DNA of 64,000 nucleotides, taken from Candidatus Doudnabacteria bacterium. GTDB taxonomy: Bacteria; Patescibacteriota; Doudnabacteria; UBA920. Both the position numbers and the translations under genes were made by a program. Within the stretch, counting starts at the first letter, position 1. Each line of letters starts with the position of its first letter. This document shows, piece by piece, positions 1,525-50,967 of the stretch. The stretch lies in NCBI GenBank assembly GCA_963768175.1, contig CAVYGQ010000001.1, forward strand, positions 100,481 through 164,480, written 5' to 3'. The notes below the pieces were generated by a model. It searched no databases. It was not told the DNA's origin and was given only the letters and a program-made list of their open reading frames with translations.

Positions 1525-3408
1525 ATGCCTAAAATTTGGAAAGTAAAAACCAAAATTCCCGATGACATCGCGCAAAATTTATCGGAGTATCCGGAACTTT
1601 TGCGGCAGCTGTTTTTTAATCGTGGATTGACGGGAAAAGACCAAATTCAGGATTTTTTGGAGCCAAAATACGAAAATCTATACAGCCCGTTTTTGTTTAA
1701 AGATATGGAAAAGGCGGTGGAGCGGATTTGGCAGGCAATTGACCGGAGTGAAAAAATTTGTATTTATGGCGACTATGATGCCGACGCGATTACTGCCAAC
1801 GCGGTGCTGGCGCAGACGTTTAAATATTTAGGCGTTGAGATTTTATCGTACATCCCTGACAGGTTTACCGAAGGATACGGCATTAATATCGATGCTCTGT
1901 TAAAGATAAAGGATGAAGGATCAAAGATAATCATAACCGTTGATTGCGGCACTAATTCCGCTGACGCGGCAGAGTTTTGCAAAAAAAATAATATCGATCT
2001 AATTATTACCGACCATCATGAAATCATCGGAGAGGTTCCTGATGCTTACGCGCTGATAAATCCCAAAAATCCCGATGACAATTATCTATACCGCGATATT
2101 ACGGGAGTCGGGGTGGCATTTAAGCTGGCTTGCGGGATTTTATCAAAACGTGAAAAAATTATCGCGCGTTTTGAACCCTCACCCCTAGCCCCTCTCCCAA
2201 AGGGGGAGGGGAAGCCCGGAGTTGTGGGATGGGAAAAGTGGCTGCTTGATTTGGTGGCCATCGGCACGGTGGCGGATTGCCACAGCCTACTGGGGGAGAA
2301 TCGGATATTAGTAAAGTATGGTTTAAAAGTTTTGGCCAAGACGAAGTGGATTGGTTTACGCGCGTTGATGGAATCCGCGGGTTTGGCAGAGGTGTCCCCT
2401 CTGCAGCAGAGGGGACACCTCTGCCCGTTGAAGCCGCTTGATACCTATACCCTAGGCTTTATCATCGCGCCGAGATTAAACGCGGCGGGCAGGCTGGAGC
2501 ATGCCGGCATTGCTTTGGATCTATTGCTGGAAACCGATGCCAATCGCGCAAACGAAAAAGCCCGCAAACTGGAAGCCATAAATACGCGCCGGCAGGGGCT
2601 GACTGCGGAGGTGTTAAGCGAGGCCAAGGAAAAGGTCTTATTGCTTAAGGAAAGAAAAGTTTTGGCACTTGTAGGTGAAGGTTGGCCCAAAGGCGTAATG
2701 GGCCTGGTCGCCGGTAAATTGGCCGAGGAATTTTATAAGCCTACGATTGTGTTGGAAAAAACGGAGAATTTATGCACTGGTTCGGCCAGAACCGCCGGCA
2801 AGTTTGATATTTTGGAGGCTTTAAAGTTTTCTTCCGAGCATTTGTCCAAATTTGGCGGCCATAAACAGGCCGCTGGTTTGAGTTTAGAGGCCAATAAATT
2901 TGACCTTTTTTACCAGAAACTATTGGAATATGCCGAGGTAAAAATTGCGCCGGAATCGGCACAAAAAGCCCTTGAGCTGGAAGCAAAACTTGAGGGTCAT
3001 GACCTAATACCTAACACCTATAACCTAATATCTAAACTCCAGCCATTCGGCGTGGACAATCCCACTCCAAAATTTTTAGTTTCCAATCTTGAAGTTTCAT
3101 CAATCCGCATGGTCGGCAAGCAAACCCAGCATTTGCAGGTGAGATTTATATTGCCTTTTCGGCGTCATTCTGACCCTGAGCGGAGCGAAGGGGAAGAATC
3201 TCAATCAAAAGGAGAGATCCTTCGCTCCGCTCAGGATGACGCCGGGGTGAGTGGCAGGGAAATCGCCGGTATTATGTTTAATGCGCCGGATTTTGCCAAA
3301 ACTTTGAAAATCGGCGATACTGTAGATGTCGCGGCAGAGTTAATTGAGGACGGGTGGAACGGGAAGAGGGAAGTGAAGTTGCGCATCGTAGACCTAAAAA
3401 TTATCTAA
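1525..3408 (+). CDS. recJ: Single-stranded-DNA-specific exonuclease RecJ (DHH/DHHA1), with three in-frame palindromic insertions
   Basis: The DHH motifs (ICIYGDYDADAITA, IITDHH) and a DHHA1 region with an OB-fold C-terminus are present. Extra peptide segments are encoded by palindromes at 2189-2211, 2387-2423 and 3160-3247. Confidence 0.9.
   Translation: MPKIWKVKTKIPDDIAQNLSEYPELLRQLFFNRGLTGKDQIQDFLEPKYENLYSPFLFKDMEKAVERIWQAIDRSEKICIYGDYDADAITANAVLAQTFKYLGVEILSYIPDRFTEGYGINIDALLKIKDEGSKIIITVDCGTNSADAAEFCKKNNIDLIITDHHEIIGEVPDAYALINPKNPDDNYLYRDITGVGVAFKLACGILSKREKIIARFEPSPLAPLPKGEGKPGVVGWEKWLLDLVAIGTVADCHSLLGENRILVKYGLKVLAKTKWIGLRALMESAGLAEVSPLQQRGHLCPLKPLDTYTLGFIIAPRLNAAGRLEHAGIALDLLLETDANRANEKARKLEAINTRRQGLTAEVLSEAKEKVLLLKERKVLALVGEGWPKGVMGLVAGKLAEEFYKPTIVLEKTENLCTGSARTAGKFDILEALKFSSEHLSKFGGHKQAAGLSLEANKFDLFYQKLLEYAEVKIAPESAQKALELEAKLEGHDLIPNTYNLISKLQPFGVDNPTPKFLVSNLEVSSIRMVGKQTQHLQVRFILPFRRHSDPERSEGEESQSKGEILRSAQDDAGVSGREIAGIMFNAPDFAKTLKIGDTVDVAAELIEDGWNGKREVKLRIVDLKII
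3160..3247. repeat. Family-1 palindromic element inserted in-frame in recJ
   Basis: ggcgtcattctgaccctgagcggagcgaagg ... ccttcgctccgctcaggatgacgcc encodes FRRHSDPERSEGEESQSKGEILRSAQDDAG without interrupting the ORF. Confidence 0.8.
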
Positions 3409-5252: not shown

Positions 5253-5352
5253 TATAATCCGAATTATCCGAATACTGCAATCCAAATGACCCGAATGGGG
5301 GAACGGATAGATTTGGGGCATTCGGATATTAATTCGGGGTATTAGGATTATA
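5253..5352. repeat. ~100-bp inverted-repeat (MITE-like) element, copy A, immediately upstream of mreB
   Basis: tataatccgaattatccgaatactgcaatccaaatgacccgaat ... cattcggatattaattcggggtattaggattatat. The same arms occur at 11212-11658 and 13926-14022. Confidence 0.8.
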
Positions 5353-5357
5353 TTTCC

Positions 5358-8245: not shown

Positions 8246-9643
8246 ATGCAATCCGTCATTATGCATCTGGACATGAATAGCTATTTTGCCTCTGTAGAAC
8301 AGCAGGATAATTTAGCCTGGCGTGGAAAGCCTGTGGGGGTATGCGAACATTTGGGAGGCATTATTATTGCGGCTTCGGTAGAGGCTAAGCGTTGGGGCAT
8401 TAAAACCGGCACGCCCGTCTGGGAAGCCCGCAAGCTTTACCCCAAAATTATCATTAGCCCCACGCATCCGGACCGTTACCGTTTTTTTAACCGCTCTATG
8501 GTTAAGGTTGTGTCCGATTACACTTCCGCCGTGGAGGTTTACAGCATAGACGAGGTTTTTGCGGATTTGACCAAGGCTTGCAATGTCCGTCTCTGCCGGC
8601 GTCATTCCGAGCGAGTGCATCCGAGCGAGGAATCTCTTATTAGGCTAAGTGTAAGAGATCCCTTGTCCTCGGATGCACTCGGACTCAGGATGACGCCTGG
8701 GGAGAGCATGGCCGACCCTTTTGAAGAAGCTGTAAACATCGCTAAGGAAATCAAGCGGCGGTTTAAGGCCGAAGTGGGAGACTGGCTAAGGTGCAGCATC
8801 GGCATCGCCGAAAATAAATTGCTGGCCAAAATCGGTTCGGATTTTAAAAAACCCGATGGACTAGTGGTTATAACCGACAAGGGGCATCCTTGTGCAGCAC
8901 AAGGATGCCCCTTGTGGCTTTCTAAAGACGATATATACGATCGTCTGCGTCTTACCGACATCCCCGGTATTGGCCGGCGCCAAGAGAATAATTTAAACCA
9001 ACTTGGCATTAAGACGCTTAAAGAATTACGTGATTTTCCCAAAAGCCATTTAGTTGCCAGGTTCGGCAACATTATGGGCCATCATTTGTATAATATCGGG
9101 CAATTGCAGGGAACTTGGAAAGCTCCCGTCCATCAGGAACAAGAAATTAAGTCCATGGGCCATATGTATACTTTGCCGCAGGAGTTCCGCCGGCCGGAAT
9201 TTTTTATGCCCGTTCTCTATAAATTATGCGAGATGGTCGGCCGGCGCCTGCGCAGGAAGAGTTTAATGGGCAACCTTATTTACTTTTATTGTCACGATAA
9301 AGATTATCAGGGATTCGGCAAAAGCGTTAAGCTTGGATATTTTGTGCAGGACGGCAGGGAAATATTTTTGGTTGCCGCGGATATATACGCGGATCTGTTA
9401 CGCGGATCTAAACGCGGAGCGTTGGGGGTAAAGCTCATCGGCGTTACCGTGGCAGGCCTTCGGCCTTATGTCCATCAGCTTAGTTTGTTTGGTGATGTTG
9501 AGCGGCGGCTTAAGGCGACAAAGGCCCTGGACAAGATTAACGACAAATACGGGGAATTTACCATTTTGCGCGCGCAAATGCTGCCGGCCGGCAAAGCCTT
9601 TGCCGATTCCATAGGTTTTGGCAGGGTAAAGGAGCTTGGGTAG
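8246..9643 (+). CDS. dinB: DNA polymerase IV (Y-family, DinB) with two in-frame palindromic insertions
   Basis: The translation shows HLDMNSYFASVE, the finger/palm motifs and a little-finger domain. Insertions are encoded at 8594-8698 (family 1) and 8879-8915 (a perfect palindrome). Confidence 0.9.
   Translation: MQSVIMHLDMNSYFASVEQQDNLAWRGKPVGVCEHLGGIIIAASVEAKRWGIKTGTPVWEARKLYPKIIISPTHPDRYRFFNRSMVKVVSDYTSAVEVYSIDEVFADLTKACNVRLCRRHSERVHPSEESLIRLSVRDPLSSDALGLRMTPGESMADPFEEAVNIAKEIKRRFKAEVGDWLRCSIGIAENKLLAKIGSDFKKPDGLVVITDKGHPCAAQGCPLWLSKDDIYDRLRLTDIPGIGRRQENNLNQLGIKTLKELRDFPKSHLVARFGNIMGHHLYNIGQLQGTWKAPVHQEQEIKSMGHMYTLPQEFRRPEFFMPVLYKLCEMVGRRLRRKSLMGNLIYFYCHDKDYQGFGKSVKLGYFVQDGREIFLVAADIYADLLRGSKRGALGVKLIGVTVAGLRPYVHQLSLFGDVERRLKATKALDKINDKYGEFTILRAQMLPAGKAFADSIGFGRVKELG
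8594..8698. repeat. Family-1 palindromic element inserted in-frame in dinB
   Basis: ggcgtcattccgagcgagtgcatccgagcgagg ... cctcggatgcactcggactcaggatgacgcc encodes CRRHSERVHPSEESLIRLSVRDPLSSDALGLRMTPG. Confidence 0.8.
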
Positions 9644-9792
9644 AAAAGACAAGGACTGTCCTTTTGCAGGTAATGCCAAGTTTTAAGGACAGTCCTTGCG
9701 GAAAATATGGAAGTTCGCCGGGGCTGATTTTGACAAACACCAAAATAAATAATATACTAATTCAAGCATAGAATTAACTGAAATTTTAAAAT

Positions 9793-10945: not shown

Positions 10946-11209
10946 ATGTCCGATCAGGAAGAGTATGGTAAAATGCTTACCGATTTAATCCAAAAGCAAA
11001 TGGTGGTGCTTGGTCCAAACATTGCTTTGGACAAAGCCCGTAAGGTTGCCGGATTAAAAGTCTCTGACGACGGGGTCGTTTTGGAGGTGACGGGGGATCC
11101 GAAACTGGTTTTAAAAGGCGTAGCCAACGAATATATGATGCTTTCCGGGCAGATTGTCCAAATGACCTTAAATTCGCTTTTGGAAAAATATCCGCAAATG
11201 AAAATGTAA
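10946..11209 (+). CDS. Hypothetical small protein
   Basis: It is preceded by an AGGAG-like RBS (aaaggagaaataaaaat atg). No motifs were recognised. Confidence 0.35.
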   Translation: MSDQEEYGKMLTDLIQKQMVVLGPNIALDKARKVAGLKVSDDGVVLEVTGDPKLVLKGVANEYMMLSGQIVQMTLNSLLEKYPQMKM

Positions 11210-11211
11210 AA

Positions 11212-11658
11212 TATAATCCGAATTATCCAAATACTGCAATCCAAATGACCCGAATTGTGGAAAAAGATTTATCCTACAAGATAACCGGTTTGTGTTTTAA
11301 AGTTCATAAAAAGTTAGGGAGATTTGCTAGTGAAAGACAGTATTGTGATGAATTTGAAAATTATCTAATAAAGGAAAATCTTCCATATGAAAGAGAGTTC
11401 GTAATCAAAAAGTTGTTACCTGATTCACCCGCAGGGAACAGGGTTGATTTTTTTGTTAAAGGGAAAGTTATTATAGACTTTAAAGCCAAACCTTTTATTA
11501 CCAAAGAAGATTATTTTCAGATGCAACGTTATTTGCAGGCAGCAAACCAGGAGTTGGGATTAATAATAAACTTTCGGGCTTATCGATTAACACCCAAGCG
11601 GATATTGAACAGCGGTTATTCGGGTCATTCGGATATTAATTCGGGTAATTAGGATTAT
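11212..11658. mobile_element. MITE-like inverted-repeat element, copy B, carrying a GxxExxY ORF between its arms
   Basis: The left arm at 11212-11256 and right arm at 11618-11658 are homologous to the arms of copies A and C. The ~360-bp interior is occupied by ORF 11245-11652. Confidence 0.6.
11245..11652 (+). CDS. GxxExxY family protein (PD-(D/E)XK-like fold)
   Basis: The GLCFKVHKKLG..E..Y..E.E... pattern is characteristic of the GxxExxY family, and the size (135 aa) fits. Confidence 0.65.
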   Translation: MTRIVEKDLSYKITGLCFKVHKKLGRFASERQYCDEFENYLIKENLPYEREFVIKKLLPDSPAGNRVDFFVKGKVIIDFKAKPFITKEDYFQMQRYLQAANQELGLIINFRAYRLTPKRILNSGYSGHSDINSGN

Positions 11659-13340: not shown

Positions 13341-13541
13341 GTATCGTCATTGCGAGGAGTTAGACGACGAAGCAATCTTTTTTTGGAAAGGTAAAGATTG
13401 CCGCGCAATTTAGGACAAAGCCCCTAAATTGCTCGCAATGACAGGAACGATATTGCCGTTATCGGTTTTCTAAATATTGTGGTATAATAAGGTATCAATA
13501 AATCCCTTCAAATAAGGGTTTAAAATTATTAAATAAAAACT

Positions 13542-13925
13542 ATGACAAAAATTTTATTGGCAGAAGACGACAAGCTTATTTCCAATTCGCTTTGCGATGC
13601 TCTTAAAACCGCAGGATTTGAGCCTGCTGTGGCTTATGACGGCGAAGAGGCTGTGGCTAAGGTCAAGGAAGCCTTGCCTGATTTAATACTTTTGGATATT
13701 ATGATGCCTAAACTAGACGGTATTTCCGTGCTTTGGGAGCTTAAAGCCAATCCTGCCACGGCTAAAATCCCAGTGGTAGTGCTTACCAACATCGGCGATG
13801 TGGAAACTATCAGTAAAATTGTGGAAGCCGGAGCTGTGGATTACTTGCTTAAGTCGGACCAGTCGGTAGATGATATTATCCAAAAAGTAAAAGACGTTTT
13901 AGCAAGGAACGTAAAATTAGCGTAA
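13542..13925 (+). CDS. Response regulator, receiver domain only (CheY-like)
   Basis: The translation has EDD, a phospho-acceptor Asp in LILLDIMMP and the conserved T and K residues. There is no output domain. Confidence 0.85.
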   Translation: MTKILLAEDDKLISNSLCDALKTAGFEPAVAYDGEEAVAKVKEALPDLILLDIMMPKLDGISVLWELKANPATAKIPVVVLTNIGDVETISKIVEAGAVDYLLKSDQSVDDIIQKVKDVLARNVKLA

Positions 13926-14022
13926 ATATAATCCGAATTATCCAAATGGGAACAATCCAAATGCTCCGAAAAGTAGAGCATTTGGGGCATTCGGATATTG
14001 ATTCGGGGAATTAGGATTATAT
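13926..14022. repeat. MITE-like inverted-repeat element, copy C
   Basis: tataatccgaattatccaaatgggaacaatccaaatgctccgaaaagtagagcatttggggcattcggatattgattcggggaattaggattatat. Confidence 0.8.
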
Positions 14023-14025
14023 TAA

Positions 14026-14453: not shown

Positions 14454-14956
14454 ATGCCAAAAATAGGCAAGGAATTTTTTGTTATCGCCCATAACATCCG
14501 TTCCCTTTATAACGTCGGCTCAATTTTCCGTACAGCCGACGCTTTTGGAGTCCGCAAGATTTATTTGACCGGCTACACCGGCACGCCGGCAAACCCTGTC
14601 CATAAAAAGAAAATCGGCAAAGTGGCGCTTGGGGCAGAGGAGTGGGTGAGTTGGGAGTATTTCAAATCCGCTCAAGCGGTTATTCGCGTCCTCAAAAAGC
14701 GAAAGTTCACCATCGTCGGTTTGGAAAACAACGTCCCCCCTCTTATTTTAAGAGGGGCCAGGGGGTGATATTATTACCAAAATTCAAGCCCAAATTCCCG
14801 CTAGTCTTAATTTTGGGCGAGGAAGTTTCCGGAATTAACCACGCCTTGATAAAATCCTGCGATCGACTGATTGAAATACCGATGTCGGGCAAAAAAGAAA
14901 GCCTGAACGTTTCCGTGGCTTTTGGCATCGCGGCATACCAGATATCAAAAAAATAA
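14454..14956 (+). pseudogene. SpoU/TrmH-family RNA 2'-O-methyltransferase interrupted by a frameshift at a palindromic insertion
   Basis: The N-terminal half runs in frame 0 to a stop at 14766-14768. The C-terminal half (LVLILGEEVSGINHAL..IPMSGKKESLNVSVAFGIA) continues in the +2 frame. The junction lies in ccccccTCTTATTTTAAGAggggcc, flanked by C6 and G5 homopolymers. Confidence 0.65.
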
Positions 14957-21085: not shown

Positions 21086-21706
21086 TTATGCGAACTGTTG
21101 CAACTGTCCTAAAATGGCCTGTTCCAGCTGAACAGTATCATAATGGCGTTGAGGCTTGATGTGTAAAATATTTAACTCTGAGGCTCTCAAAGCCCCGTCT
21201 AAAAAATCATCTCTTAATTTTCTATTGAAATAATTATGGGTATAATCATCCAGTTCAATAACCAAAAGTGGCGACAAATAAACTTTGTCAAAGATTACAA
21301 AATCTACTGTCTTTTTGTTTATCCTGTTAAAGTTGCTGTAAGTGGAATTTGTGCCGTATCTTTCCAGTCCGCCTTGGACTTCAATGATTCGGGATAAGGC
21401 AACCTGTGGCATAATAAAATACCTGTCCTTGATTATTTCCTGTAGCACTCCGAAAAACTTGTATTCGGTTTGGGTCATCAGGTATCGCTTTTTTCTGAAT
21501 GGATAAATTTTATCGTCTTTTTTTACTTCCTGAATTTTTGTATTGCCAGCATTACTAGGCGGTAAAGGTATCTCGGAATAATTTTGCTTTGAGCTTTTTA
21601 TGATGTAACTGGCAAGAATGATTATGATTATTAAACCAAATAAAAAATCCATAAATTTGCTTTTAGAAACACAAAGCCCCGGTCCAGCCGGGCTTTTACA
21701 CCCCAT
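21086..21706 (-). CDS. DUF2726-domain protein (NERD/restriction-endonuclease-like fold), membrane-anchored
   Basis: An N-terminal TM helix precedes the DUF2726 signature (TVDFVIFDKVYLSPLLVIELDDYTH ... RDDFLDGAL...LNILHIK). Confidence 0.55.
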   Translation of the reverse strand: MGCKSPAGPGLCVSKSKFMDFLFGLIIIIILASYIIKSSKQNYSEIPLPPSNAGNTKIQEVKKDDKIYPFRKKRYLMTQTEYKFFGVLQEIIKDRYFIMPQVALSRIIEVQGGLERYGTNSTYSNFNRINKKTVDFVIFDKVYLSPLLVIELDDYTHNYFNRKLRDDFLDGALRASELNILHIKPQRHYDTVQLEQAILGQLQQFA

Positions 21707-22000
21707 ACCCCTTTCGGGATATGACCATAAGACAGTAGCTGAACGCGGGGTTCAGTATGTCTTATGGTTTTACAGCCGTGCCTGATTAAAGGTTTAGGCC
21801 ATTCAGTTGTGATTAAATTATACCAAACTTGACAACAATTTTAAAGGGGTGTATGGTGGAGTTAGTTCATTAAAAAGTTAATAATTAAACGTAAGTTTTA
21901 TTTCTCCTCCCTCGGAGTAAGACAGGGGCTATGCCGTTTTGAACACAAAAACGGTGTGGCGTTTTGACCGCTTGTCTCAGCCATTAGAGGCCTTACAAAA

Positions 22001-22207
22001 GTGTTTGTGGGGTTTAATATGTCTGGGTTCAGTAATGAGCTAAAACAGCGTTTAATTGATTATTTTCAAACGAAATACGGACAAAAACTAACCTCAGAAC
22101 AAGCTGAGGCTTTTTTATTGTCCCTTGCGAATCTGTATTCGCTGGTGGTAGAGCGGCGGGCGGGCCCGCAGGGCCAGCCCGACCGCCGCTCTACCTGTAT
22201 TACTTGA
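22001..22207 (+). CDS. Small hypothetical protein upstream of the recombinase (possible accessory or directionality factor)
   Basis: The 68-aa ORF ends in a GC-rich hairpin (gagcggcgggcgggcccgcagggccagcccgaccgccgctc). No motifs were recognised. Confidence 0.25.
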   Translation: MFVGFNMSGFSNELKQRLIDYFQTKYGQKLTSEQAEAFLLSLANLYSLVVERRAGPQGQPDRRSTCIT

Positions 22208-22322
22208 ATTAAGCTACACATAAGGGGATTTAATAATTACATAATTAATTTTAAGTTCTGTCAAAATAATTTGTATTTTTCTTTTGGTTAGATATATAAT
22301 CAAGCTAATTAAAAAATCAAAT

Positions 22323-23792
22323 ATGAAATATATAATCTACACCCGTAAATCATCCGAGGCCTCTGACCGCCAAGTCCTGTCCATTGAATCGCAGGAAAAT
22401 GAGTTATTGGCTTTGGCTGATAGGAATGGGGCTAAGGTTGGTAAAATATTCCGTGAGAGTATGTCAGCCAAACAGCCAGGCCGTCCTGAATTTGAAAAAT
22501 TAATAAAACTGATTGAACAAAATCCCTGCTCTGTGCTATTCGTCTGGAAACTTGACCGCCTCGCTCGTAACCCCGTTGATGAGGGTAAAATTAAGTGGCT
22601 CCTGCAAAACAAGACCATAGCCCAAATTATTACGCCTGACAGAATTTATAATCCCAATGACAATGCCTTAATCGCTTCTGTGGAATTTGGAATGGCTAAT
22701 CAGTATATTCGTGATTTATCGTCCAATGTAAAACGAGGCAATAGGACTAAACTTCAAAAAGGTGAAATGCCTGGTGCGGCTCCTATCGGCTACTTGGATA
22801 ATCCCTTAACCAAATTAAAAACTATTGACGCTCTAAAAGCTCCACTGATAAAACAAGCATTTGAACTTTATGCGACTGGGGCATACAGCTTAAAAACAGT
22901 TGGTAAAATGATTGAGACTTCAGGCCTTAGAAGTAAACTCGGCAATCCTCTAAAAAAAGCCATACTGCACCATATGTTTACAAATCCTTTTTACTACGGA
23001 GCCATTAGGCATAATGGAGAAATATATCAAGGAGTTCACGAGCCAATTATTTCCAAAACATTATTTGATACAGTGCAATATGTCTTAAGCGGTAAAACCC
23101 GCCCTAAAAAACAAAAACACTTCTTCCCTGTTAGAGGCTATATGCTCTGTCATTCCTGCGGCTGTCTGCTTACTGCCACAACTAAAAAAGGCCATTCATA
23201 TTATTATTGCACTAATGGCAAAGGCAACTGCCAACAACACAAAAAATATTTAAGAGATAAAGCCGTGGACAAACTCGTGGCTAAAACCTTAAACGAAATT
23301 AAATTTGATACCTCAATGATTGAAATGGCTTATCTCGCTTACAAGGAAAAAATCCTAAATGGCAACGATAATTCTCAAACTAGAAAATCTGAACTCTCCT
23401 TACAGCTCAAATCTGAACAGGACAAGCTCTCTAATCTCGCCAAGGTTATTTCCTCTAAGCCGACACTCGCTAACTCCCTAGAGGCTGAAATTTTATCTCT
23501 AGAGGTAAAGATTAAATCCATTGAGCAACAGATTAAGCAAACTGACAAACAGACCCTCCAGGAGCAATTATTTACTTTGGAACAAACAAAAAAGGCCTTT
23601 TTACAGGCCAGTTCCGCATCTTTTGACTATTTGGATAGCGATGATTACCAAAAATTTGAACTGCTAAAAAATTTACTTTGGAACCTCAAGGTAGAAAATC
23701 AGAAAGTCCAACAATATCAGTTCAAAAGTTATTATCAACTTATGGCTGAAAGCCCTAAAAACCTTCAAATTTCTGGTTGGCTGGGGTGGTAG
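22323..23792 (+). CDS. Large serine recombinase (resolvase/invertase catalytic domain, recombinase domain, zinc ribbon)
   Basis: The N-terminus YIIYTRKSSEASDRQVLSIESQ carries the catalytic Ser, with a Cys cluster (CHSCGC...C) and a C-terminal coiled-coil. The likely start is the ATG at 22323. The 3' end overlaps a tRNA-Gln-derived repeat. Confidence 0.85.
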   Translation: MKYIIYTRKSSEASDRQVLSIESQENELLALADRNGAKVGKIFRESMSAKQPGRPEFEKLIKLIEQNPCSVLFVWKLDRLARNPVDEGKIKWLLQNKTIAQIITPDRIYNPNDNALIASVEFGMANQYIRDLSSNVKRGNRTKLQKGEMPGAAPIGYLDNPLTKLKTIDALKAPLIKQAFELYATGAYSLKTVGKMIETSGLRSKLGNPLKKAILHHMFTNPFYYGAIRHNGEIYQGVHEPIISKTLFDTVQYVLSGKTRPKKQKHFFPVRGYMLCHSCGCLLTATTKKGHSYYYCTNGKGNCQQHKKYLRDKAVDKLVAKTLNEIKFDTSMIEMAYLAYKEKILNGNDNSQTRKSELSLQLKSEQDKLSNLAKVISSKPTLANSLEAEILSLEVKIKSIEQQIKQTDKQTLQEQLFTLEQTKKAFLQASSASFDYLDSDDYQKFELLKNLLWNLKVENQKVQQYQFKSYYQLMAESPKNLQISGWLGW

Positions 23793-23803
23793 GATTCGAA
23801 CCT
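23778..23803 (-). repeat. Partial copy of the tRNA-Gln 3' end (candidate att-site direct repeat)
   Basis: tggctggggtggTaggattcgaacct matches the 3' 26 nt of tRNA-Gln at 26228-26253 with one mismatch. Confidence 0.6.
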
Positions 23804-23931
23804 TATTAGGTCTAGAACCAAACCCTTTTAATTATGGCCATAAATGTCCTTTAATATAAGTTGGGGCAATTTAGTTTCCAAAAGTATAAAGTGCTATACT
23901 ATAATTAAATAGATTATTATAGTATATAACT

Positions 23932-24639
23932 ATGGGGAAATATCCAAAAATTAAATTTATTATTGATTTTAAAGAAGACAAAAAAAATGCGCTGAGATTT
24001 TTAGGAGATACTAATGAATGGAAAAAGGAGCGTTTTTTTCCGTCTGAGTTACAATATGTTCTACAGAATAAATTAGCACAGAAAGAAAAACAAAGGATTG
24101 TTAATAACTTTGTTAAACAGTATTTTTTAAAAAATGAGTTTGAAATTAAAATTGGGGTAAGAGCAATTGCAAATGAATGGATGTCGATTGGAAGGTATTT
24201 TTTTGATCTAGTTGACAAGCTATTTTACGACCACCCTTGGCCAAAAGGAAACTACGTGGGATATGCAAGTATTTTTAATATGTTTCCTAGAGATATTGAG
24301 AAAAAAACCTTTTCATTTCCATATCGGAAGGAAGATGTCAGTTGGGCAATAAAAGTGATAGCCCATGAAATGTTACACTTTATTTTTTTTGACTATTTAA
24401 ATAAAGTGTATAGGTATACTCAAAATACCCAAATAAAAAATAAAAATTCAAACTTCATTTGGCAATTATCAGAGGCTCTAAACAATATAATAGAAAATTC
24501 GCGATCATACCGTAAGGTCATACCAATAAAAAAATTGAGCAAGCCATATCCAGGAAACGAAAAAATTTATAAAAAACTACTGGCCCAATGGAATAAAAAA
24601 AACGATATAAAAAAGTTATTGGATAGCGCTTTAGGGTAA
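23932..24639 (+). CDS. Hypothetical protein with an HExxH motif (possible zinc-dependent hydrolase)
   Basis: It has an IAHEMLH motif and an AT-rich composition. No other similarity was recognised. Confidence 0.45.
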   Translation: MGKYPKIKFIIDFKEDKKNALRFLGDTNEWKKERFFPSELQYVLQNKLAQKEKQRIVNNFVKQYFLKNEFEIKIGVRAIANEWMSIGRYFFDLVDKLFYDHPWPKGNYVGYASIFNMFPRDIEKKTFSFPYRKEDVSWAIKVIAHEMLHFIFFDYLNKVYRYTQNTQIKNKNSNFIWQLSEALNNIIENSRSYRKVIPIKKLSKPYPGNEKIYKKLLAQWNKKNDIKKLLDSALG

Positions 24640-24796
24640 ATAAAACGGAGCCCCAATCTTGGAAGAGAGGGGCTCCGCTACGATAGCGGCAGGAACGAGT
24701 CCTTGCCTAGGCGCAGTCGTAACCGCTGTTGACAGGTACCCCAAATTCTAGACACTTAGTCTGAGGTATAATAAGGCTAGAAAGGAATCTAACTTT

Positions 24797-25063
24797 ATGC
24801 CCAAAGGCAAATACAAAGTCAGTCCGGAAGTTAAAACTCAAATTCTAAAACGAATTAAGGAAGAAGGTGTCAGCGTCACCCAGGCGGCCGAGGAGCACGG
24901 CCTGTCCACCCAAACCATTTACGGCTGGATAGCCAAAGGGGTTACAGCTCCGCCGTCCGTGCTTGAACTCTCCCGCCTGAAGCGGGAAAATCAAACCCTC
25001 CACGAGATTATCGGCCGGCTGACAGTCAAACTGTCATTGGCGGAAAAAAAGGACATTGGTTGA
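24797..25063 (+). CDS. IS3 transposase OrfA (HTH plus leucine zipper)
   Basis: An HTH (VSVTQAAEEHGLSTQTIYGW) and a heptad-Leu C-terminus are present. The gene ends inside an A7G run at 25044-25051. Confidence 0.85.
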   Translation: MPKGKYKVSPEVKTQILKRIKEEGVSVTQAAEEHGLSTQTIYGWIAKGVTAPPSVLELSRLKRENQTLHEIIGRLTVKLSLAEKKDIG

Positions 25064-25895
25064 AGACCTGTCCGCCGCTATGCACCTTGAAAATCCGACT
25101 AAGACCGAGTTGGCCAGGAGCTTGGGAGTCAGCAGAGCCAGTCTGTATTACGAACCTACCCTGCCGCAAAAAGACTGGCTCCTTAAAATCCGCATTGAAC
25201 AAACCCTGCATGACCACCCCAGCTACGGCCACAAACGGCTGGCTCCGGCGCTACATGTTAACAAGAAAAGAATCCGGCGCACCATGAGGCTGTTTGGTAT
25301 TAAGCCTTACCGCAGGACAGGCAGAAAGCTAAGAAAAGCAAGGGATTTGGGACAAATTTCCGCTCCTTACCAAAACTGGCTGATGCTGATTCCGTTTCCA
25401 GAAGAGCCGGGAATTGTCTGGGTCAGTGACTTTACCTACATATCATTCCACGGCCGGTTTGTTTACCTGGCGACGATAATAGATTTATTCACCAGGGAGG
25501 TTGTCGGCTGGTCAGTCTGGACCGCGCATAGCAGCCAGCTAGTTCTACTGGCTTTAATTGACGCACTGGAAAAACATCCGGCGGCCAAATATCTCCATTC
25601 CGACCAGGGGCAAGAATACAAATCCCGAACCTACTGTAGGCTGGCCGAACAGGCCGGTATTACAATTTCCATGAGCCACAAATCATCACCGTGGGAGAAC
25701 GGCTACCAAGAATCCTTTTATGGCAAGCTCAAGACTGACTTAGGTGATCCGGGGAGGTTTAAGACCTTGGGAGAGCTAACGGCCGAAATTTACCTCCTCA
25801 TCTACAGCTACAACCACGACAGAATCCATACATCATTAAAAATGCCGCCGTCAGCATTTGCCGACCGGCAGCGGAATCAAGTATCATTAACTTAA
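25023..25895 (+). CDS. IS3 transposase OrfB (DDE integrase core), frame open from 25023 and overlapping orfA by 41 nt
   Basis: An rve-type DDE core is present (WVSDFTYI ... HSDQGQEY ... with a downstream E). It lies in the +1 frame relative to orfA. Confidence 0.85.
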   Translation, partial: QSNCHWRKKRTLVEDLSAAMHLENPTKTELARSLGVSRASLYYEPTLPQKDWLLKIRIEQTLHDHPSYGHKRLAPALHVNKKRIRRTMRLFGIKPYRRTGRKLRKARDLGQISAPYQNWLMLIPFPEEPGIVWVSDFTYISFHGRFVYLATIIDLFTREVVGWSVWTAHSSQLVLLALIDALEKHPAAKYLHSDQGQEYKSRTYCRLAEQAGITISMSHKSSPWENGYQESFYGKLKTDLGDPGRFKTLGELTAEIYLLIYSYNHDRIHTSLKMPPSAFADRQRNQVSLT

Positions 25896-26141
25896 CCTTA
25901 AAAAACCGCAGAGAAGGTGCCTAAAGAAATGGGTACCTTACAGGGGAAATTTCTTTCAGCTCTGTATAAAATTTAGCTATTAAAAGACAAAAAAGTGTAC
26001 CTGGAATGAAGTAGGACTTCGAACCAAGATAAACAATAGTTTAGACAAAAATAAGAGCATGGACTAAAATTCATGCTCTTATTTTCTATAAGTTCTTGTC
26101 CTTTAACTTAGGGTTGGTAGGTCTGTAGGAACCAAAATTTC

Positions 26142-26205
26142 TGGCTGCCCGGGTTGGATTCGGACCAACGCATGGAGGCTCCAAAGGCCCCCTTGCCCCG
26201 CACCA
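26142..26205 (-). other. Degenerate tRNA-Gln-like remnant (pseudo-tRNA)
   Basis: tggctgcccgggttggattcggaccaacgcatggaggctccaaaggccc... parallels the tRNA-Gln 3' two-thirds, including the CTTTGGAG anticodon region. The acceptor stem cannot pair and the length is only ~64 nt. Confidence 0.4.
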
Positions 26206-26227
26206 ATTTTTAACAAATTTATTCTCT

Positions 26228-26302
26228 TTGGCTGGGGTGGCAGGATTCGAACCTGCGAATGGCGCCTCCAAAGGGCGCTGCCTTACCACTTGGCGACACC
26301 CC
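26228..26302 (-). tRNA. tRNA-Gln (anticodon UUG)
   Basis: The minus strand reads UGGGGUGUCGCCAAGUGGUAAGGCAGCGCCCUUUGGAGGCGCCAUUCGCAGGUUCGAAUCCUGCCACCCCAGCCA. It folds as a cloverleaf with U1-A72, a 7-nt anticodon loop CUUUGGA and an encoded CCA. It is close to E. coli tRNA-Gln. Confidence 0.9.
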
Positions 26303-26439
26303 AAAATAAGACAACTAAGGTATATTATAAAATAAATTCGGGAAAAAAGAAAGCCCAACCTTGAGTATGGGGAGCTTGCGGAATTTGCGTTTGACAGCCA
26401 AAATGTGCTATAATTTCTTTAGGATTAATCCCTAAATTT

Positions 26440-27909: not shown

Positions 27910-27994
27910 TTGTTAATTAACGTTGAGATGGGCACCTTCTCGTAGCGAGAAGGTGCCCATATTTTAAGTATAAAAGATGTTATAATTAAGCTGT

Positions 27995-29225: not shown

Positions 29226-29476
29226 TATCAGCAATTAAACCCCCACACCAATTTGATATAAATTTGTTAAGGGTTTAGCAAAATCCTCCAACCATTTCAA
29301 AATGAATTGGTGTGGGGGTAAACCAAAGACAGTTGGCCTCCGACTGAAACGTCGGAGTTAATTATCATCGCAAGATGATTGCCCACCGAGGAAGTGTAGC
29401 GCGCCCATTCATGGGCTGCAGCCGATAAATCGGCGCGCTACATCACACTCGGGTAAGCCCGAGTATTTTTGTTCGG
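29226..29476 (+). ncRNA. Candidate structured sRNA (promoter, five consecutive hairpins, intrinsic terminator); class unknown
   Basis: A TGGTATAAT -10 at 29217-29225 is followed by stems aaacccccacaccaatt/aattggtgtgggggtaaacc, ctccgac/gtcggag, atcatc-gcaa-gatgat and gtagcgcgcc/ggcgcgctac. The final stem cactcgggtaagcccgagtg is followed by atttttg. Confidence 0.3.
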
Positions 29477-29542
29477 CGTCATCCTGAACGAAGTGAAGGA
29501 TCTCATTAAAGAGATTCCTCGCTGCGCTCGGAATGACGCCGG
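29472..29542. repeat. Family-1 palindromic element in the rplJ leader region
   Basis: ttcggcgtcatcctgaacgaagtgaaggatctc ... gagattcctcgctgcgctcggaatgacgccgg. Confidence 0.8.
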
Positions 29543-30769: not shown

Positions 30770-30870
30770 ATGTCATCTCGAGCGAGTGCATCCGAGCGAA
30801 GGATCCATTCTTTGATAATATAGCATTATTATTTCAAAGTCATCCCGAGGGCTTTAGCCCGAGGGATCTC
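30770..30870. repeat. Family-1-related palindromic elements (two units) downstream of rplL
   Basis: gtcatctcgagcgagtgcatccgagcgaaggatc and gtcatcccgagggctttagcccgagggatc are each hairpin-forming. A further unit lies at 30958-30995. Confidence 0.7.
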
Positions 30871-31005: not shown

Positions 31006-32094
31006 ATGTTTGTCAATTTTTGGCAACAATTAAATAAGCCCATTTTTTGCCTGGCGCCCATGGAAGGCGTTACGGACGTGGCTTTTAGGGAAATGTTTGC
31101 GAGATATAGCGGGAATGGTTCCCCCTCATCCGGTCCGCCTACTGGCGGGCCACCTTCTCCCTCAGGGAGAAGGTGTAATGAATTTGTTCTTTTTACGGAG
31201 TTCATTAACGTGGACGGATTAACGCATCCCGAAGGCCGGAAAAAATTGGAAATTGATTTAAAATATACGGGAAATCAGCGGCCGATAGTCGCCCAGTTGT
31301 GGGGCAGATCGCCGTTAAAATTTGAAGAAGCGGCCAAGATTATCGCTTCTTTAGGTTTTGACGGCATAGATATAAATATGGGCTGTCCGCAGGACAAAGA
31401 AATTAAAATCGGTGCCTGCGCCTCCCTTATTAAGGAACCCCAATTGGCCATGGAAATCATCAAGTTTACAAAAAAAGGGGCGGGAGATTTGCCGGTATCG
31501 GTCAAAACGCGTTTGGGATACAGCGAAAACATTATTGGCACGTGGCTCAGGCATTTGTTATCAGCTGGGCCCGCGGCCATAACTGTGCACGGCCGCACCA
31601 AGCAGGAAAAGTCCAAAGTTCTGGCCGACTGGGGGGCTATCGGTGAGGCGGTAGTAATTCGCGATGAGATGTTCCCTCAAAACCCTCACCCTTCACCCTC
31701 TCCCAGAGGGAGAGGGAAAGAAGTTGGCCTGCGGCCGCTAATAATCGGCAACGGCGACATTAAATCGCGGCAAGAGGGTTTACAGCGCGTTAAAGAGTCC
31801 GGAGTTGACGGGGTTATGGTAGGCAGGGGAGCGTTTGGCAATCCGTGGTTCTTTAGATTGGATAGTTATCAGCCAAATATAAAAGAGCGCCTGTCCGTTA
31901 TGCTGGAGCACGCCGAATTGTTTAACGATATTTTGGGCGGCCAAAAATCTTTCTTTATTATGCGCAAGCACTTTAAAGCCTACTGCTCAGGTTTCAACGG
32001 CGCCCATGAACTCCGCGCCAAACTTTTAAGTGCCAAAGATTTGGAAGAAACTAGATTGATAGTCAGCGAATACTTAAACTCCGCCCCGGTATAA
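31006..32094 (+). CDS. dus: tRNA-dihydrouridine synthase (Dus family) with two in-frame palindromic insertions
   Basis: The LAPMEGVTDVAFR start and a TIM-barrel FMN-binding core are present. Insertions encode GSPSSGPPTGGPPSPSGRR (palindrome ccttctccctcagggagaagg at 31163-31183) and PHPSPSPRGRGKE (ccctctcccagagggagaggg at 31695-31715). Confidence 0.85.
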   Translation: MFVNFWQQLNKPIFCLAPMEGVTDVAFREMFARYSGNGSPSSGPPTGGPPSPSGRRCNEFVLFTEFINVDGLTHPEGRKKLEIDLKYTGNQRPIVAQLWGRSPLKFEEAAKIIASLGFDGIDINMGCPQDKEIKIGACASLIKEPQLAMEIIKFTKKGAGDLPVSVKTRLGYSENIIGTWLRHLLSAGPAAITVHGRTKQEKSKVLADWGAIGEAVVIRDEMFPQNPHPSPSPRGRGKEVGLRPLIIGNGDIKSRQEGLQRVKESGVDGVMVGRGAFGNPWFFRLDSYQPNIKERLSVMLEHAELFNDILGGQKSFFIMRKHFKAYCSGFNGAHELRAKLLSAKDLEETRLIVSEYLNSAPV

Positions 32095-36263: not shown

Positions 36264-36617
36264 ATGCAAACTTATAAAGATCTTATTGTTTGGAAGAAGT
36301 CCATGGAATTGGTTGTCGTTGTTTACAAACTTACCGATTTTTATCCGGCCTCTGAACAATATGGTTTGACTTCTCAATCACGCCGATGCTCAGTTTCCAT
36401 ACCTTCAAATATAGCTGAGGGTAAACGGCGCGGGACTATTAAGGAATTCAGACATTTTTTGTTAATTTCTTATGGCTCCGGAGCCGAATTAGAAACTCAA
36501 ATTGAGATCGCAAAACGGTTATCGTGGGGGCAAAAATTAGATTTTACAAAAGTGGATAGGCTGTTAGAAGAAGTTATGAAGATTTTAAACAAAATGATTA
36601 ATAACTTACAAGGTTGA
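36264..36617 (+). CDS. Four-helix-bundle protein (TIGR02436-like, the '23S rRNA intervening sequence protein' family)
   Basis: YKLTDFYPASEQYGLTSQ.RR...SIPSNIAEG...EF..FL.IS.GS..ELETQ matches the family pattern. Confidence 0.7.
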   Translation: MQTYKDLIVWKKSMELVVVVYKLTDFYPASEQYGLTSQSRRCSVSIPSNIAEGKRRGTIKEFRHFLLISYGSGAELETQIEIAKRLSWGQKLDFTKVDRLLEEVMKILNKMINNLQG

Positions 36618-37304: not shown

Positions 37305-37379
37305 TTGGTAGCGCTACAGGGAATCGGACCCTGATTTGTTGGCTGAGAACCAACCGTCCTAACCATTAGACGATAGCGC
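37305..37379 (-). tRNA. tRNA-Glu (anticodon CUC)
   Basis: The minus strand reads GGCGCUAUCGUCUAAUGGUUAGGACGGUUGGUUCUCAGCCAACAAAUCAGGGUCCGAUUCCCUGUAGCGCUACCA. It folds as a cloverleaf with anticodon loop UUCUCAG and an encoded CCA. Confidence 0.85.
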
Positions 37380-37619
37380 CATAATTGTATCAAATAATTC
37401 TTGCCTAGCTTTATAATAATGTTTAAGGTGGTATTCTCTTTTTCGTGCTTCCGTTAAGGTAGGGCATTCTTCAGTATAGACAATTTTAAAAGGTCTGTAT
37501 GGTTTGGTTGATTTGACCTTACCGTTGTTATGGTATCGCAATCTTTGTTCTTTATCTTCTGTACATCCGATGTACTTCCAATTTTGCTTTAAGCTTTGTA
37601 ATACATATATCCAAGCCAT
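37359..37619 (-). CDS. GIY-YIG nuclease superfamily protein (small, stand-alone)
   Basis: WIYVLQS...WKYIGCTEDKEQRLRYHNNG...FKIVYTEE..T.TEARKREYHLKH matches GIY-YIG motifs. The last 7 codons overlap the 5' 21 nt of tRNA-Glu. Confidence 0.7.
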   Translation of the reverse strand: MAWIYVLQSLKQNWKYIGCTEDKEQRLRYHNNGKVKSTKPYRPFKIVYTEECPTLTEARKREYHLKHYYKARQELFDTIMALSSNG

Positions 37620-37672: not shown

Positions 37673-37694
37673 GGCTAACCATTAGACGATAGCG
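37673..37694 (-). repeat. Duplicate of the first 22 nt of tRNA-Glu (ggcgctatcgtctaatggttag), a direct repeat flanking the GIY-YIG gene
   Basis: It is an exact copy of 37358-37379 and lies ~290 bp upstream of the tRNA on the minus strand. It is followed by the hairpins cccgccggaggcggg and ccgccttcggcgg. Confidence 0.7.
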
Positions 37695-37928
37695 CCTCGT
37701 CGCGCTTTACTTCGCGCTTTCGTTCCGACTTCGATCGGAACTTTCGCGCTTCGTAAAGTGCTCCTCTTCCCCAAAAATCCGTGCTCGTCCCGACTAGTCG
37801 GGACTGCGCTCCTGATTTTTGGGGACCCCTTTATTAGGGGGTCTGTGATATTCTATCAAATTTTGAGAATTTAGCCAAGTGTGGCATAATTAAATAAAGC
37901 ATGTAACATAAAACATGTAGCATTTTGC

Positions 37929-43929: not shown

Positions 43930-43969
43930 CCAGTGGGAAAGTTGTACAAATGTACAACTTTCCCACTGG
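43930..43969. terminator. Perfect 40-bp palindrome (ccagtgggaaagttgtacaaatgtacaactttcccactgg) between the ybaK-like gene and scpA
   Basis: A 17-bp perfect stem sits between tandem minus-strand genes. Confidence 0.5.
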
Positions 43970-43973
43970 CGGA

Positions 43974-44528
43974 TTATTTTTTATTTTTTGAAAAGTTACC
44001 CAAGACTGGTTTAACAAGTTTTTCAAAATCCTTGAGCGCGATTTCCACGCTGTCGGTGTAAGTGCCGGCGCTTGCAACCATTTTCTTGGCTCGCGACATG
44101 CCTTTGTCCAGTAACGTCTGAAGATTATATTCGGAGCCAAACGGGTGCAACAAGCCGACTTTGGTTTTTAGGTATACGGTGATATCTTTTTCCGAAGCCA
44201 TCGATACCTTTTTGGCCTTAAGCGCTTTTTTGATGCCGGAAAAGTCCACGTATTTGCCAGCGGGCAATACAATTAACACGAGATCAGAGGACAGTCCTTT
44301 TTTTAAGGGACTGTCCTCTTTCCATCCGTCAACCTTAACCAAAACCACTTTCGCTATTTCGTTAAGTTTCTTTTTAGTCGTTTGCGCGGCATCGTGTGCT
44401 GTATAAACCACCTTATGGCTTAAAGTTTTATATTTAACCTTGGCTTTGTCTAAAAGTTTGGTAACTTTGGTTTCCAGCTTTTTTACTTGCTTTTCAATGG
44501 TTGGTTTTTTTGATGCTTTTTTCTTCAT
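43974..44528 (-). CDS. YbaK/ProX-like aminoacyl-tRNA deacylase domain protein with a Lys-rich N-terminal extension
   Basis: A YbaK-like core (HKVVYTAHDAAQ ... LVLIVLPAGKYVDF..IKKAL ...) is present. An in-frame palindromic insertion lies at 44288-44319 (gaggacagtcctttttttaagggactgtcctc). Confidence 0.55.
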   Translation of the reverse strand: MKKKASKKPTIEKQVKKLETKVTKLLDKAKVKYKTLSHKVVYTAHDAAQTTKKKLNEIAKVVLVKVDGWKEDSPLKKGLSSDLVLIVLPAGKYVDFSGIKKALKAKKVSMASEKDITVYLKTKVGLLHPFGSEYNLQTLLDKGMSRAKKMVASAGTYTDSVEIALKDFEKLVKPVLGNFSKNKK

Positions 44529-46788: not shown

Positions 46789-46949
46789 ATATTTTGACCG
46801 TAATTGCGATAAACAGTCGCCACGGCAGTTAAAAATGAATACAAAAGTATTTTACAATAAAATCGTAAATATGGCAAAAATAATTAAAGCTACAGGGGAC
46901 ACTTCTTCCAGAAGTGTCCCCTGTAGCGGTTGATCAGTTTTTGACAAAA

Positions 46950-47385
46950 ACAGAGAGAGGGTTAGAATAAATTTAACCAATCCAAAGGGACAGGAGCCAA
47001 ACTGTGTCCTTCGGGGCACTCAATAGGCTGAAAGGCCTTATCAGTTTGGTTTAAAAGGGAGGGAATGGCCATATGACTGTGACCAATTCCGTCATGAAGA
47101 ACGGCTAAGAAGATAAGTTGTCACCCCACGGACGCGATCGTGGGGACAAAATCGCCTAAGGATCCGGCTAACGGACTGGAGACCAAAGGTGCCCGGGAGA
47201 TAGCCTGCCTATTTGCCGTGGGTAAGGTTTGTACCGGGCAGCAATCATAAGCTTGGCTGCGGGCGCAGCCACTCCTTCGGCGAAGTTTTTAGGAGAATTC
47301 AGGGTAGCACAAGCTACCAAGGAATAGCGATATTCCGCCCCACTTGATGCCGGCAAGTGGGGTTCGTTTTTGTCTTTTTACAAAA
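46950..47385 (+). ncRNA. Structured ~430-nt non-coding region with an intrinsic terminator; candidate ncRNA (RNase P RNA-sized, class unconfirmed)
   Basis: It has multiple stems (ctgtgtccttcggggcac; caccccacggacgcgatcgtggggac; ggctgcgggcgcagcc). The terminator gccccacttgatgccggcaagtggggttcgtttttgtcttttt lies at 47337-47380. It sits in a 750-bp divergent intergenic gap between aspS and the exonuclease gene. Confidence 0.3.
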
Positions 47386-47540
47386 AATTTTCTATACTAT
47401 ATGAGTAAAAATCAATTAAAAGGTATGATTGGATTTCCCCTCTTAAAATAAGAGGGGATTAAGGGGTGATATTTATCATCGGCGATATCCCCTCCTAGCC
47501 TCCCCTTATACTAAGGGGAGGGAAATCGCAGGAAACCAAA

Positions 47541-50811: not shown

Positions 50812-50967
50812 TAGGATTTACGTGGTCGCCAGTTGAGGACAGCCCTCTGGCACAGTATCGGTAATAATTAAAACGATTTATAAATATCAAGTCATTATTT
50901 ATTTAGTGGCGTTGGCTTGCCAGAGGACTGTCCTCAAGCTCGTTGGCATCAACAATTTACTCAAATG

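Follow-up and report, generated by a model that had tools for sequence, protein, structure and literature searches.

REP/RPE-like palindromic elements, probably mobile, within the reading frames of housekeeping genes of a Candidatus Doudnabacteria bacterium

Rickettsia palindromic elements (RPEs; Ogata et al. 2000, 2002), as far as they are described in PMC10969869, are about 100-150 bp long. For repetitive extragenic palindromic (REP) sequences of the GTAG/CGTC type, in-frame copies within genes have been reported from several phyla, and many of these lie in genes of replication and repair (Di Nocera et al. 2013, PMC3733652). In the same survey different REPs were found at one recB site of Xanthomonas, and genomes of the Candidate Phyla Radiation (CPR) were outside its scope. 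Here, palindromic elements lying in recJ, dinB and other housekeeping genes of a Candidatus Doudnabacteria bacterium (Patescibacteriota) were analysed in a stretch of 64,000 nt, called the window throughout (contig CAVYGQ010000001.1, positions 100,481-164,480, assembly GCA_963768175.1). A preliminary description of this DNA had proposed that mobile hairpin elements colonise coding sequence while preserving the reading frame, in the manner of RPEs. The proposal is supported by every check that had been suggested with it. The added peptides are missing from distant orthologues of RecJ, DinB, Dus, AspRS and the YbaK-like protein, their presence or absence varies among related Doudnabacteria assemblies, the three in RecJ are the only three disordered coils of the structural model, and identical sequences recur at unrelated coding and non-coding places. 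We consider it quite probable that these are dispersed, non-autonomous REP/RPE-like palindromic elements, of which the coding copies are kept only in tolerant loops and only when compatible with the frame.

The window has a G+C content of 44%. Pfam scans of its open reading frames (ORFs) identified ordinary housekeeping genes, among them the iPGM gene, recJ, an RNase H gene, mreB, dinB and a histidine kinase gene, followed by mraZ/mraW, a PBP gene, rplJ/rplL, dus, lexA, scpA/B, a ybaK-like gene, aspS, lgt, rml genes and a sortase gene. This DNA contains 33 perfect stems of 9 bp or longer, whereas 15 dinucleotide shuffles gave a mean of 4.3 and a maximum of 7. For stems of at least 11 bp the corresponding numbers are 18 and 0.2, and for stems of at least 13 bp they are 9 and 0. 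All ten palindromes previously claimed in coding genes are present in the sequence, and the insert peptides quoted for them are true translations of the ORFs. The further claim that the ORFs stay unbroken holds for nine of the ten sites (recJ, dinB, dus, aspS and the ybaK-like gene) and fails for the SpoU/TrmH gene, where the frame breaks at the hairpin. Each of the nine in-frame hairpins, distributed over five proteins, falls at a gap or break when the protein is aligned with a solved homologue; these segments are insertions. The elements of the window measure 25-105 nt, the upper value being reached by the family B copy of dinB alone. They are depleted in coding sequence: ten lie in about 52 kb of ORF DNA (ORFs of at least 100 aa) and at least 17 in about 12 kb outside, a density about seven-fold higher outside the ORFs. 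The idea that G+C-rich palindromes are free of stop codons in all frames merely by composition was only partly borne out, as the short hairpins are open in six of six frames and family B in one to three of six, compared with 1.9-3.5 of six for random segments.

Several families were recognised. The consensus of family A is CCCTCACCC..CCCTCTCCC nnn GGGAGAGGG, and family B consists of GTCATYCTGAGCnnAGCGAAGRATC followed, over a total of 50-130 nt, by an inverted copy. The arms of family B differ by insertions and deletions, and a strict terminal-repeat finder misses them. Further classes are a GTCATTGCGAGG family, GTAG-tagged REP-like hairpins, and short perfect hairpins with stems of 15-21 bp and a 3-nt loop.

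Three elements are carried by recJ (1525-3408, + strand; 627 aa), the product of which matches RecJ structures in the PDB and has the Pfam domains DHH, DHHA1 and RecJ_OB. The first is a family A element, CCCTCACCCC-TAG-CCCCTCTCCC AAA GGGGGAGGGG, at 2171-2222 (+), encoding FEPSPLAPLPKGEGKPGV (aa 216-233). The second is a perfect palindrome of 41 nt with a 19-bp stem and a 3-nt loop at 2385-2425 (+), encoding LAEVSPLQQRGHLCP (aa 287-301). The third is a family B element, CGGCGTCATTCTGA...TCAGGATGACGCCG, at 3160-3247 (+; aa 546-575). All three segments appear as gaps or breaks in alignments to 8y30 and 5f54; the family A insert is a gap against 5f54, and the 41-nt palindrome is a gap of 14 aa against the PDB RecJ structures. 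In the AlphaFold model of the protein, with a mean predicted local distance difference test score (pLDDT) of 77, values below 50 are confined to aa 219-234, 290-302 and 547-576, which are the three inserts, and these are modelled as coil between regular elements. The RecJ inserts are thus placed by the model in disordered loops.

The fate of these sites during divergence was followed in a comparison set of 14 Doudnabacteria genomes, comprising the window and DNA of 13 relatives (numbered with the prefix L), in which six hot spots of recJ and dinB were read codon by codon. In a protein alignment of 30 RecJ orthologues, 62-81% identical to RecJ of the window over aligned positions, the catalytic core is invariant and inserts come and go at five to six positions. 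The family A element of recJ is missing in L008, L009 and others, and is present in L010 and L003 with further inserts nested in it. At site S4 of recJ, six genomes carry family B (the window, L008, L009, L012, L014 and L016), L011 carries instead an unrelated element of the GTCATTGCGAGG family, also in frame, and seven (L010, L013, L015 and L002-L005) are empty. The closest relative, L008, has a RecJ 81% identical over aligned positions and shows synteny with the window across the interval bounded by the iPGM and histidine kinase genes; the two have a common element at only one of the six hot spots. The elements are polymorphic among these genomes, and the inserts occur at orthologous sites in independent assemblies (JGI, ENA, NCBI).

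Similar behaviour was observed in dinB (8246-9643, +), encoding a protein of 465 aa that matches PDB structures of DNA polymerase IV. Site D1 holds a family B element with an inner palindrome (8594-8698, +; aa 117-151), and site D2 a perfect palindrome of 39 nt with an 18-bp stem and the loop CAG (8877-8915, +; aa 211-224); both segments are gaps or breaks in the alignment to 7yll. A related element occupies D1 in L011, and a family A composite is found there in L008. At D2, four types of element are distributed over seven genomes, with none in the outgroup. One type is common to the window, L011 and L006, where the perfect hairpins of L011 and L006 differ by 1-5 mirrored positions; another is common to L008 and the distant L002, and L009 and L004 have types other than that of the window.

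The remaining in-frame copies lie in genes of tRNA metabolism. The dus gene (31006-32094, +), encoding a tRNA dihydrouridine synthase of 362 aa, has two inserts, which fall within gaps or breaks against 1vhn at aa ~34-62 and 214-248. For the second of them, a family A element at 31678-31720 (+; aa 225-239, peptide NPHPSPSPRGRGK), the hairpin position given earlier was right; the first, a perfect hairpin of 11 bp, lies at 31151-31175 (+) and not at 31163-31183, and encodes aa 49-57 inside an extra segment of about 23 aa. In aspS (44938-46788, - strand; aspartyl-tRNA synthetase, 616 aa) a family A-like element at 45643-45690, in reverse orientation, encodes NGSSLPKTWGGTEGEV (aa 367-382) and produces gaps of 9 and 5 aa against 4wj3 within the GAD domain. 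The ybaK-like tRNA-editing gene (43974-44528, -; 184 aa) has a hairpin of the GGACAGTCC family at 44286-44319 (aa 70-81), seen as a 13-aa gap against 3op6. Relatives of the GGACAGTCC motif are present at 9650-9698 and 50833-50937, both intergenic.

That the families also occur between genes, as had been stated, is borne out by repeat copies within the window. Of the five family B copies, the three outside recJ and dinB are intergenic, one between the iPGM gene and recJ (1428-1511), one upstream of rplJ (29474-29541) and one, partial, downstream of rplL (30772-30810). A GTAG-tagged palindrome, TGTAGCGCGCC...GGCGCGCTACA, is intergenic at 29395-29442, and its halves recur in L002 and L010. An element of the family found in frame in L011 recJ, GTCATTGCGAGG...CTCGCAATGAC, is at 13346-13442. 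The other intergenic elements include a 39-nt perfect palindrome ending in GTAGC (46889-46927; 18-bp stem, 3-nt loop), a 40-nt perfect palindrome (43930-43969) matched at 92% identity by a copy in a non-homologous location of L008, a 33-nt perfect palindrome (27928-27960; 15-bp stem, 3-nt loop) and a composite of two hairpins (47436-47525), of which the first is the core of the insert in spoU.

Family A is likewise dispersed. Its hosts in the window are recJ, dus and aspS; relatives carry it in the enolase gene, in the RNase H gene and at the N-terminus of recJ. An identical composite, made of family A and the nested hairpin CCCTGCACCAGTCGTCTAACTCCGGTGCAGGG, is present in the enolase gene of L010 and in the RNase H gene of L012, and these two genes of the relatives show the same hot-spot behaviour as recJ and dinB. 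Several inserts are nested, with the apical loop of one palindrome occupied by a second; there is a bias towards the loops of existing palindromes.

The hairpins at recJ site S3 and dinB site D2 had at one point been taken as locus-specific, vertically inherited and symmetrised. No second copy of them was found in 282 kb of related DNA, but 'locus-specific' was overturned by a metagenome scan, in which the exact 41-nt palindrome of recJ was recovered at three other places. One copy lies in frame within a DNA polymerase I gene, where it falls in the linker that joins the 5'-exonuclease part to the Klenow part. The other two look intergenic, the longest open frame across the hairpin having 82 codons, and their contigs are near-identical in the flanks. 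None of the four identical 41-nt hairpins is flanked by a target-site duplication, and the flanks are unrelated across the distinct places. As a separate observation, the same metagenomic DNA polymerase I (L139, 588-3470, -) contains, in comparison with Taq polymerase, a second additional segment, SEKFPPEADPPLAEKVKSDDE, which looks like another palindrome-derived insert.

Family B extends beyond Doudnabacteria. A full element is present in a plasmid of Phocaeicola massiliensis (Bacteroidota), a half copy in a Granulicella plasmid, and the arm also in a Pirellulales contig. At least 120 viral contigs of IMG/VR contain the arm, and among the matches listed 49 of 152 viral arms are enclosed by frames that run for at least 150 codons without a stop. 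Among the ORFs holding them are genes of phage structural proteins, of a capsid-domain protein and of a PBECR1 nuclease protein. Ungapped matching of partner arms paired at least 22 of the 152, a figure that is lowered by insertions and deletions and was not used as evidence. Two family B peptides gave no candidates in a collection of 5.8 billion proteins, the word index of which is unsuited to short, variable peptides. The family B sequence was not found in any paper in the literature searched, and no Rfam family matches any of the hairpins.

The distribution of the elements suggests that they are mobile. In the reading we favour, non-autonomous REP/RPE-like elements would be copied to new places without target-site duplication, as judged for the 41-nt hairpin, and their preferred targets would be a few hot spots and the apical loops of resident palindromes. 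Insertion at such targets without duplication points to a single-strand or hairpin-directed mechanism, and the mover could be of the IS200 or REP-associated tyrosine transposase (RAYT) type. The majority of copies lie between genes. Genic copies would persist only if their length is a multiple of three, they contain no stop codon and they add 8-35 residues to a tolerant surface loop or linker, and selection would purge those that break frames or folds. The inserted DNA would then be translated as a disordered loop. Active transposition and the neutrality of the added peptides, like the mechanism itself, are what we infer from these comparisons.

Several points weigh against this reading. Among the 66 ORFs of the 64-kb window, Pfam scans detected no fitting transposase, the only enzymes of this kind being an IS3 DDE transposase, a serine recombinase and the product of a small GIY-YIG gene. 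In the relative L011 a Y1 (IS200-like) transposase gene is present and is flanked by unrelated terminal repeats. No gene recurs beside the family B copies in the listed viral contigs, as judged by clustering of ORFs, save phage structural genes. No pair of filled and empty sites at the strain level was found among the genomes compared, which leaves the exact boundaries of the elements uncertain, and it is from open frames in the DNA that translation of the inserts is deduced. Lastly, orthologous hairpins are perfect despite near-saturated 4-fold synonymous sites, a matter taken up below.

The Y1 gene of L011 (18841-19543; 224 aa) has terminal inverted repeats AAAAGGTGTCAGGA / TCCTGACACCTTTT. 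The same relative contains a truncated GIY-YIG gene (2312-2888) with GCGAGG-family palindromes, AATTGCGAGGAG...CTCCTCGCAATT, on both sides, and a similar GIY-YIG gene exists in the window. The Y1 transposase and the small GIY-YIG genes are leads only as candidates for mobilising the elements. A more far-reaching proposal, which we hold as tentative and on the whole doubtful, is that GTCAT-tipped palindromes and short perfect hairpins form a cross-phylum, phage-carried superfamily that would insert into extruded single-stranded hairpin loops without duplication and be continually renewed or symmetrised. Such a superfamily would be a main, ongoing generator of loop insertions in essential proteins of ultra-small CPR genomes, and may have its own mobilising enzyme, for example a small GIY-YIG protein, or a function at the nucleic-acid level in repair genes.

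The perfection of the stems bears directly on the first alternative, in which hairpins are made and kept on site by replication template switching, that is, by quasi-palindrome formation and correction, so that the coding palindromes would be local inverted duplications. Such a mechanism of hairpin formation and correction is documented (PMC8794818, PMC8604942). At recJ site S3 a hairpin with a 3-nt loop is present in nine genomes and is perfect in seven of them (16-21 bp), and at dinB site D2 all three hairpins are perfect. The differences between genomes at these two sites amount to 1-8 positions; every change on one arm is mirrored on the other and G-T pairs are absent, whereas 4-fold synonymous identity between the same genomes is only 0.41-0.60, near saturation. 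At filled sites the outer stem pairs extend into flanking codons by synonymous changes (ACC CTC compared with ACG TTG), which fits symmetrisation by template switching; the overlap of elements with native codons is limited to the outermost 5-7 bp. The short hairpins of the window moreover differ in sequence from site to site. Against local origin, the core of both arms is missing from empty orthologous sites, so that no native arm pre-existed there. The 41-nt palindrome of recJ is 100% identical at three unrelated loci, which contradicts template switching as the sole cause, the hairpin at 43930 has its near-identical copy at a non-homologous place in L008, and the dispersal of families A and B is plain. 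As the origin of the hairpins, template switching is thus improbable.

Stems that are perfect at such divergence nevertheless require turnover, conversion or symmetrisation by template switching on top of simple insertion. Since simple old insertions would have decayed, and since identical copies exist at unrelated loci, the most economical explanation would be that elements are continually replaced or converted from other copies, or that the same hot spot receives new insertions. It is possible that symmetrisation contributes, and template switching may perfect or extend stems once an element has been inserted.

An equally low probability is given to the view that the palindromes are selected nucleic-acid signals, such as terminators, mRNA stabilisers, sites for RNases or proteins, or elements controlling replication or recombination, and that those in repair and translation genes are regulatory rather than selfish. 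Hairpin identity in L010, L012 and L013 (0.89-0.93) does exceed that of core nucleotides (0.76-0.77) and of synonymous positions (0.53-0.60). Intergenic copies are often located just downstream of genes (the iPGM gene, rplL, the histidine kinase gene and viral capsid genes), and the 25-nt arm is conserved across phyla. A regulatory role is at odds with sites that are empty, or filled by unrelated families, in close relatives, and the nesting of elements and their decay, seen in L012, resemble the dynamics of junk DNA. The Rfam search was negative, and wobble pairs, which selection at the RNA level would permit, are lacking.

The exceptional copy in the trmH/spoU-like methyltransferase gene (14454-14956, +) raises the question of whether inserts are translated at all. 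The gene consists of two frames split at a hairpin element, CCCCTCTTA TTT TAAGAGGGG with the tail GGGGTGATATT, at 14733-14779 (+). Frame 0 (14454-14768), covering positions 2-83 of the Pfam SpoU domain, stops at a TGA just past the hairpin, and domain positions 91-142 continue in the -1 frame. The spacing between GLENN and KFKPKF, 21 nt (7 residues) in orthologues, is 47 nt here, and lengthening the G5 run at 14762-14766 by a single G would bring the two parts back into one frame and leave an in-frame insert of 27 nt. The core of the insert recurs at 47437-47457. By its sequence, this copy reflects either a frameshift in the gene or an error in the homopolymer. If the inserts remained untranslated, through ribosome skipping as in T4 gene 60 and the 'byp' elements of yeast mitochondria or through removal from the RNA, the stop codon of spoU, which follows a G-run directly behind a stable hairpin, would be a natural example. 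Nine of the ten coding copies, and all those in intact orthologues, are however multiples of three and stop-free in the host frame, a constraint that would be needless if the inserts were skipped and that therefore indicates translation. The single-G difference in length of the G5 run explains spoU, and skipping or removal is very improbable. A frameshifted copy implies that preservation of the frame is an outcome of selection and not intrinsic to the elements, as expected from the reading as dispersed elements retained where the frame allows.

That the extra segments are native, lineage-specific loops of Doudnabacteria, palindromic by accident, or artefacts of assembly is scarcely credible: the hot spots are variable loops in all orthologues, and outgroups carry non-palindromic sequence at dinB D1, but hairpins exceed those of shuffled DNA, identical sequences lie in unrelated genes and intergenic DNA, and assemblies made independently at JGI, ENA and NCBI have inserts at orthologous sites.

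Other features were noted in the window. The small GIY-YIG gene (37359-37619, -; 86 aa) lies directly upstream of tRNA-Glu (37306-37380). A duplicate of the initial 22 nt of this tRNA gene is found at 37675-37696, with several hairpins just upstream (37700-37870), and in view of the duplication the GIY-YIG gene has the appearance of a cassette that entered the tRNA-Glu gene at its 5' end. A PD-(D/E)XK_3 gene (11245-11652) lies between two repeats of about 45 nt (11209-11262 and 11618-11658). The same repeats adjoin each other without the gene upstream of mreB (5253-5354) and again upstream of a PCC-domain gene (13924-14023), and the arrangement suggests a small gene cassette, the ends of which also exist as 'empty' copies. 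A cluster at 22284-26303 comprises a large serine recombinase gene (22284-23792), IS3-type orfA/orfB (24797-25895) and tRNA-Gln (26229-26303). A 27-nt direct repeat at 23777-23803 and 26228-26254, the latter over one end of tRNA-Gln, probably marks the attachment sites of an integrated element.

A LOOT RNA (Rfam RF03000) was recognised at 21690-21800 (-), scoring 70 bits against a gathering score of 46; it overlaps the start of a DUF2726 gene and extends upstream. An intergenic stretch of about 400 nt (46960-47375, +) is G+C-rich and highly self-complementary, with a terminator-like hairpin and a T-run at its end (47338-47375). It has no match in Rfam, even at relaxed thresholds, and may be an unrecognised structured RNA. 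A surface-type protein of 1472 aa (58920-63338; DUF11, PKD, BiPBP_C) is encoded with long internal DNA repeats, in which a 351-nt unit at 59881-60231 is 99% identical to that at 60667-61017. Genes of '23S rRNA intervening sequence' proteins (PF05635) are found in the window (36264-36617) and in relatives, among them L009 (204-572), away from rRNA genes.

Genomes of CPR/Patescibacteria are among the smallest and most streamlined, yet their essential enzymes would contain selfish palindromes that are translated and whose turnover outpaces the divergence of the proteins. In the window this concerns RecJ, Pol IV, Dus and AspRS; related genomes and contigs add Pol I, enolase and RNase H. A large share of the odd variation in length among CPR proteins could be explained in this way, and annotators and structure predictors should be warned that such loops may be derived from repeats. 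The density of elements in essential genes of a minimal genome, their turnover and nesting at hot spots, and a cross-phylum family borne by phages are the noteworthy features. The distribution of family B across phyla and phages, together with the persistent perfect stems, offers a handle on how REP-like sequences move.

MITEs (miniature transposable elements with inverted repeats) that depend on a transposase include Correia, ERIC and Nezha. The elements described here resemble them in being non-autonomous, in having terminal inverted repeats (the arms of family B) and in being occasionally intragenic and in frame. They differ in the lack of target-site duplication at the four identical 41-nt hairpin copies. 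A parent insertion sequence with matching ends was not seen, and no candidate was noticed beside the family B copies; the ends of the IS3 element (24797-25895) were not compared. GC clusters and 'byp' elements of yeast mitochondria, and the coding palindromes of Nematomorpha mitochondria (PMC6649704), are similar in that G+C-rich palindromes have spread through a compact, A+T-richer genome into protein genes. These systems are organellar, and byps are skipped by the ribosome, whereas in Doudnabacteria the frame constraint indicates translation.

Like REPs, the elements are short stem-loops rich in G+C, most of which are extragenic, often located immediately 3' of genes. GTAG is found at the foot of the palindromes at 29395-29442, 22147-22195, 63359 and 46889-46927, and CGTC in family B (GGCGTCAT). 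In contrast to REPs, family A and the perfect hairpins of recJ and dinB have no GTAG/CGTC tags, no RAYT gene flanked by these repeats was found among the 66 ORFs of the 64-kb window, and the density inside essential genes and the nesting exceed what is described in PMC3733652.

The likeness to RPEs, as far as these are described in PMC10969869, includes several palindromic families in a small, reduced genome, intergenic copies beside in-frame copies in unrelated housekeeping genes, added peptides placed without disturbing the fold, and no known transposase. The position in loops is also of the RPE type, the three RecJ inserts falling in coils predicted by AlphaFold and the PolA copy in an interdomain linker. 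The differences are that the host belongs to a CPR phylum and that most elements, at 25-105 nt, fall below the ~100-150 bp given for RPEs in that account. Here, in addition, many hairpins are perfect with 3-nt loops, one protein site is hit by different families, elements are nested, and at least one family is common to other phyla and phage contigs. In their behaviour the elements appear to work like RPEs and intragenic REPs. The earlier statement that this phenomenon is documented for RPEs and not for this kind of genome stands for CPR/Patescibacteria, as literature searches found no paper on in-frame palindromes in these bacteria; it does not stand as a restriction to Rickettsia, given the intragenic REPs of several phyla (PMC3733652). 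Thus, the phenomenon itself is known and what is new is the lineage, CPR/Patescibacteria, which provides an independent second case, after Rickettsia, tying reduced genomes to coding palindromes.

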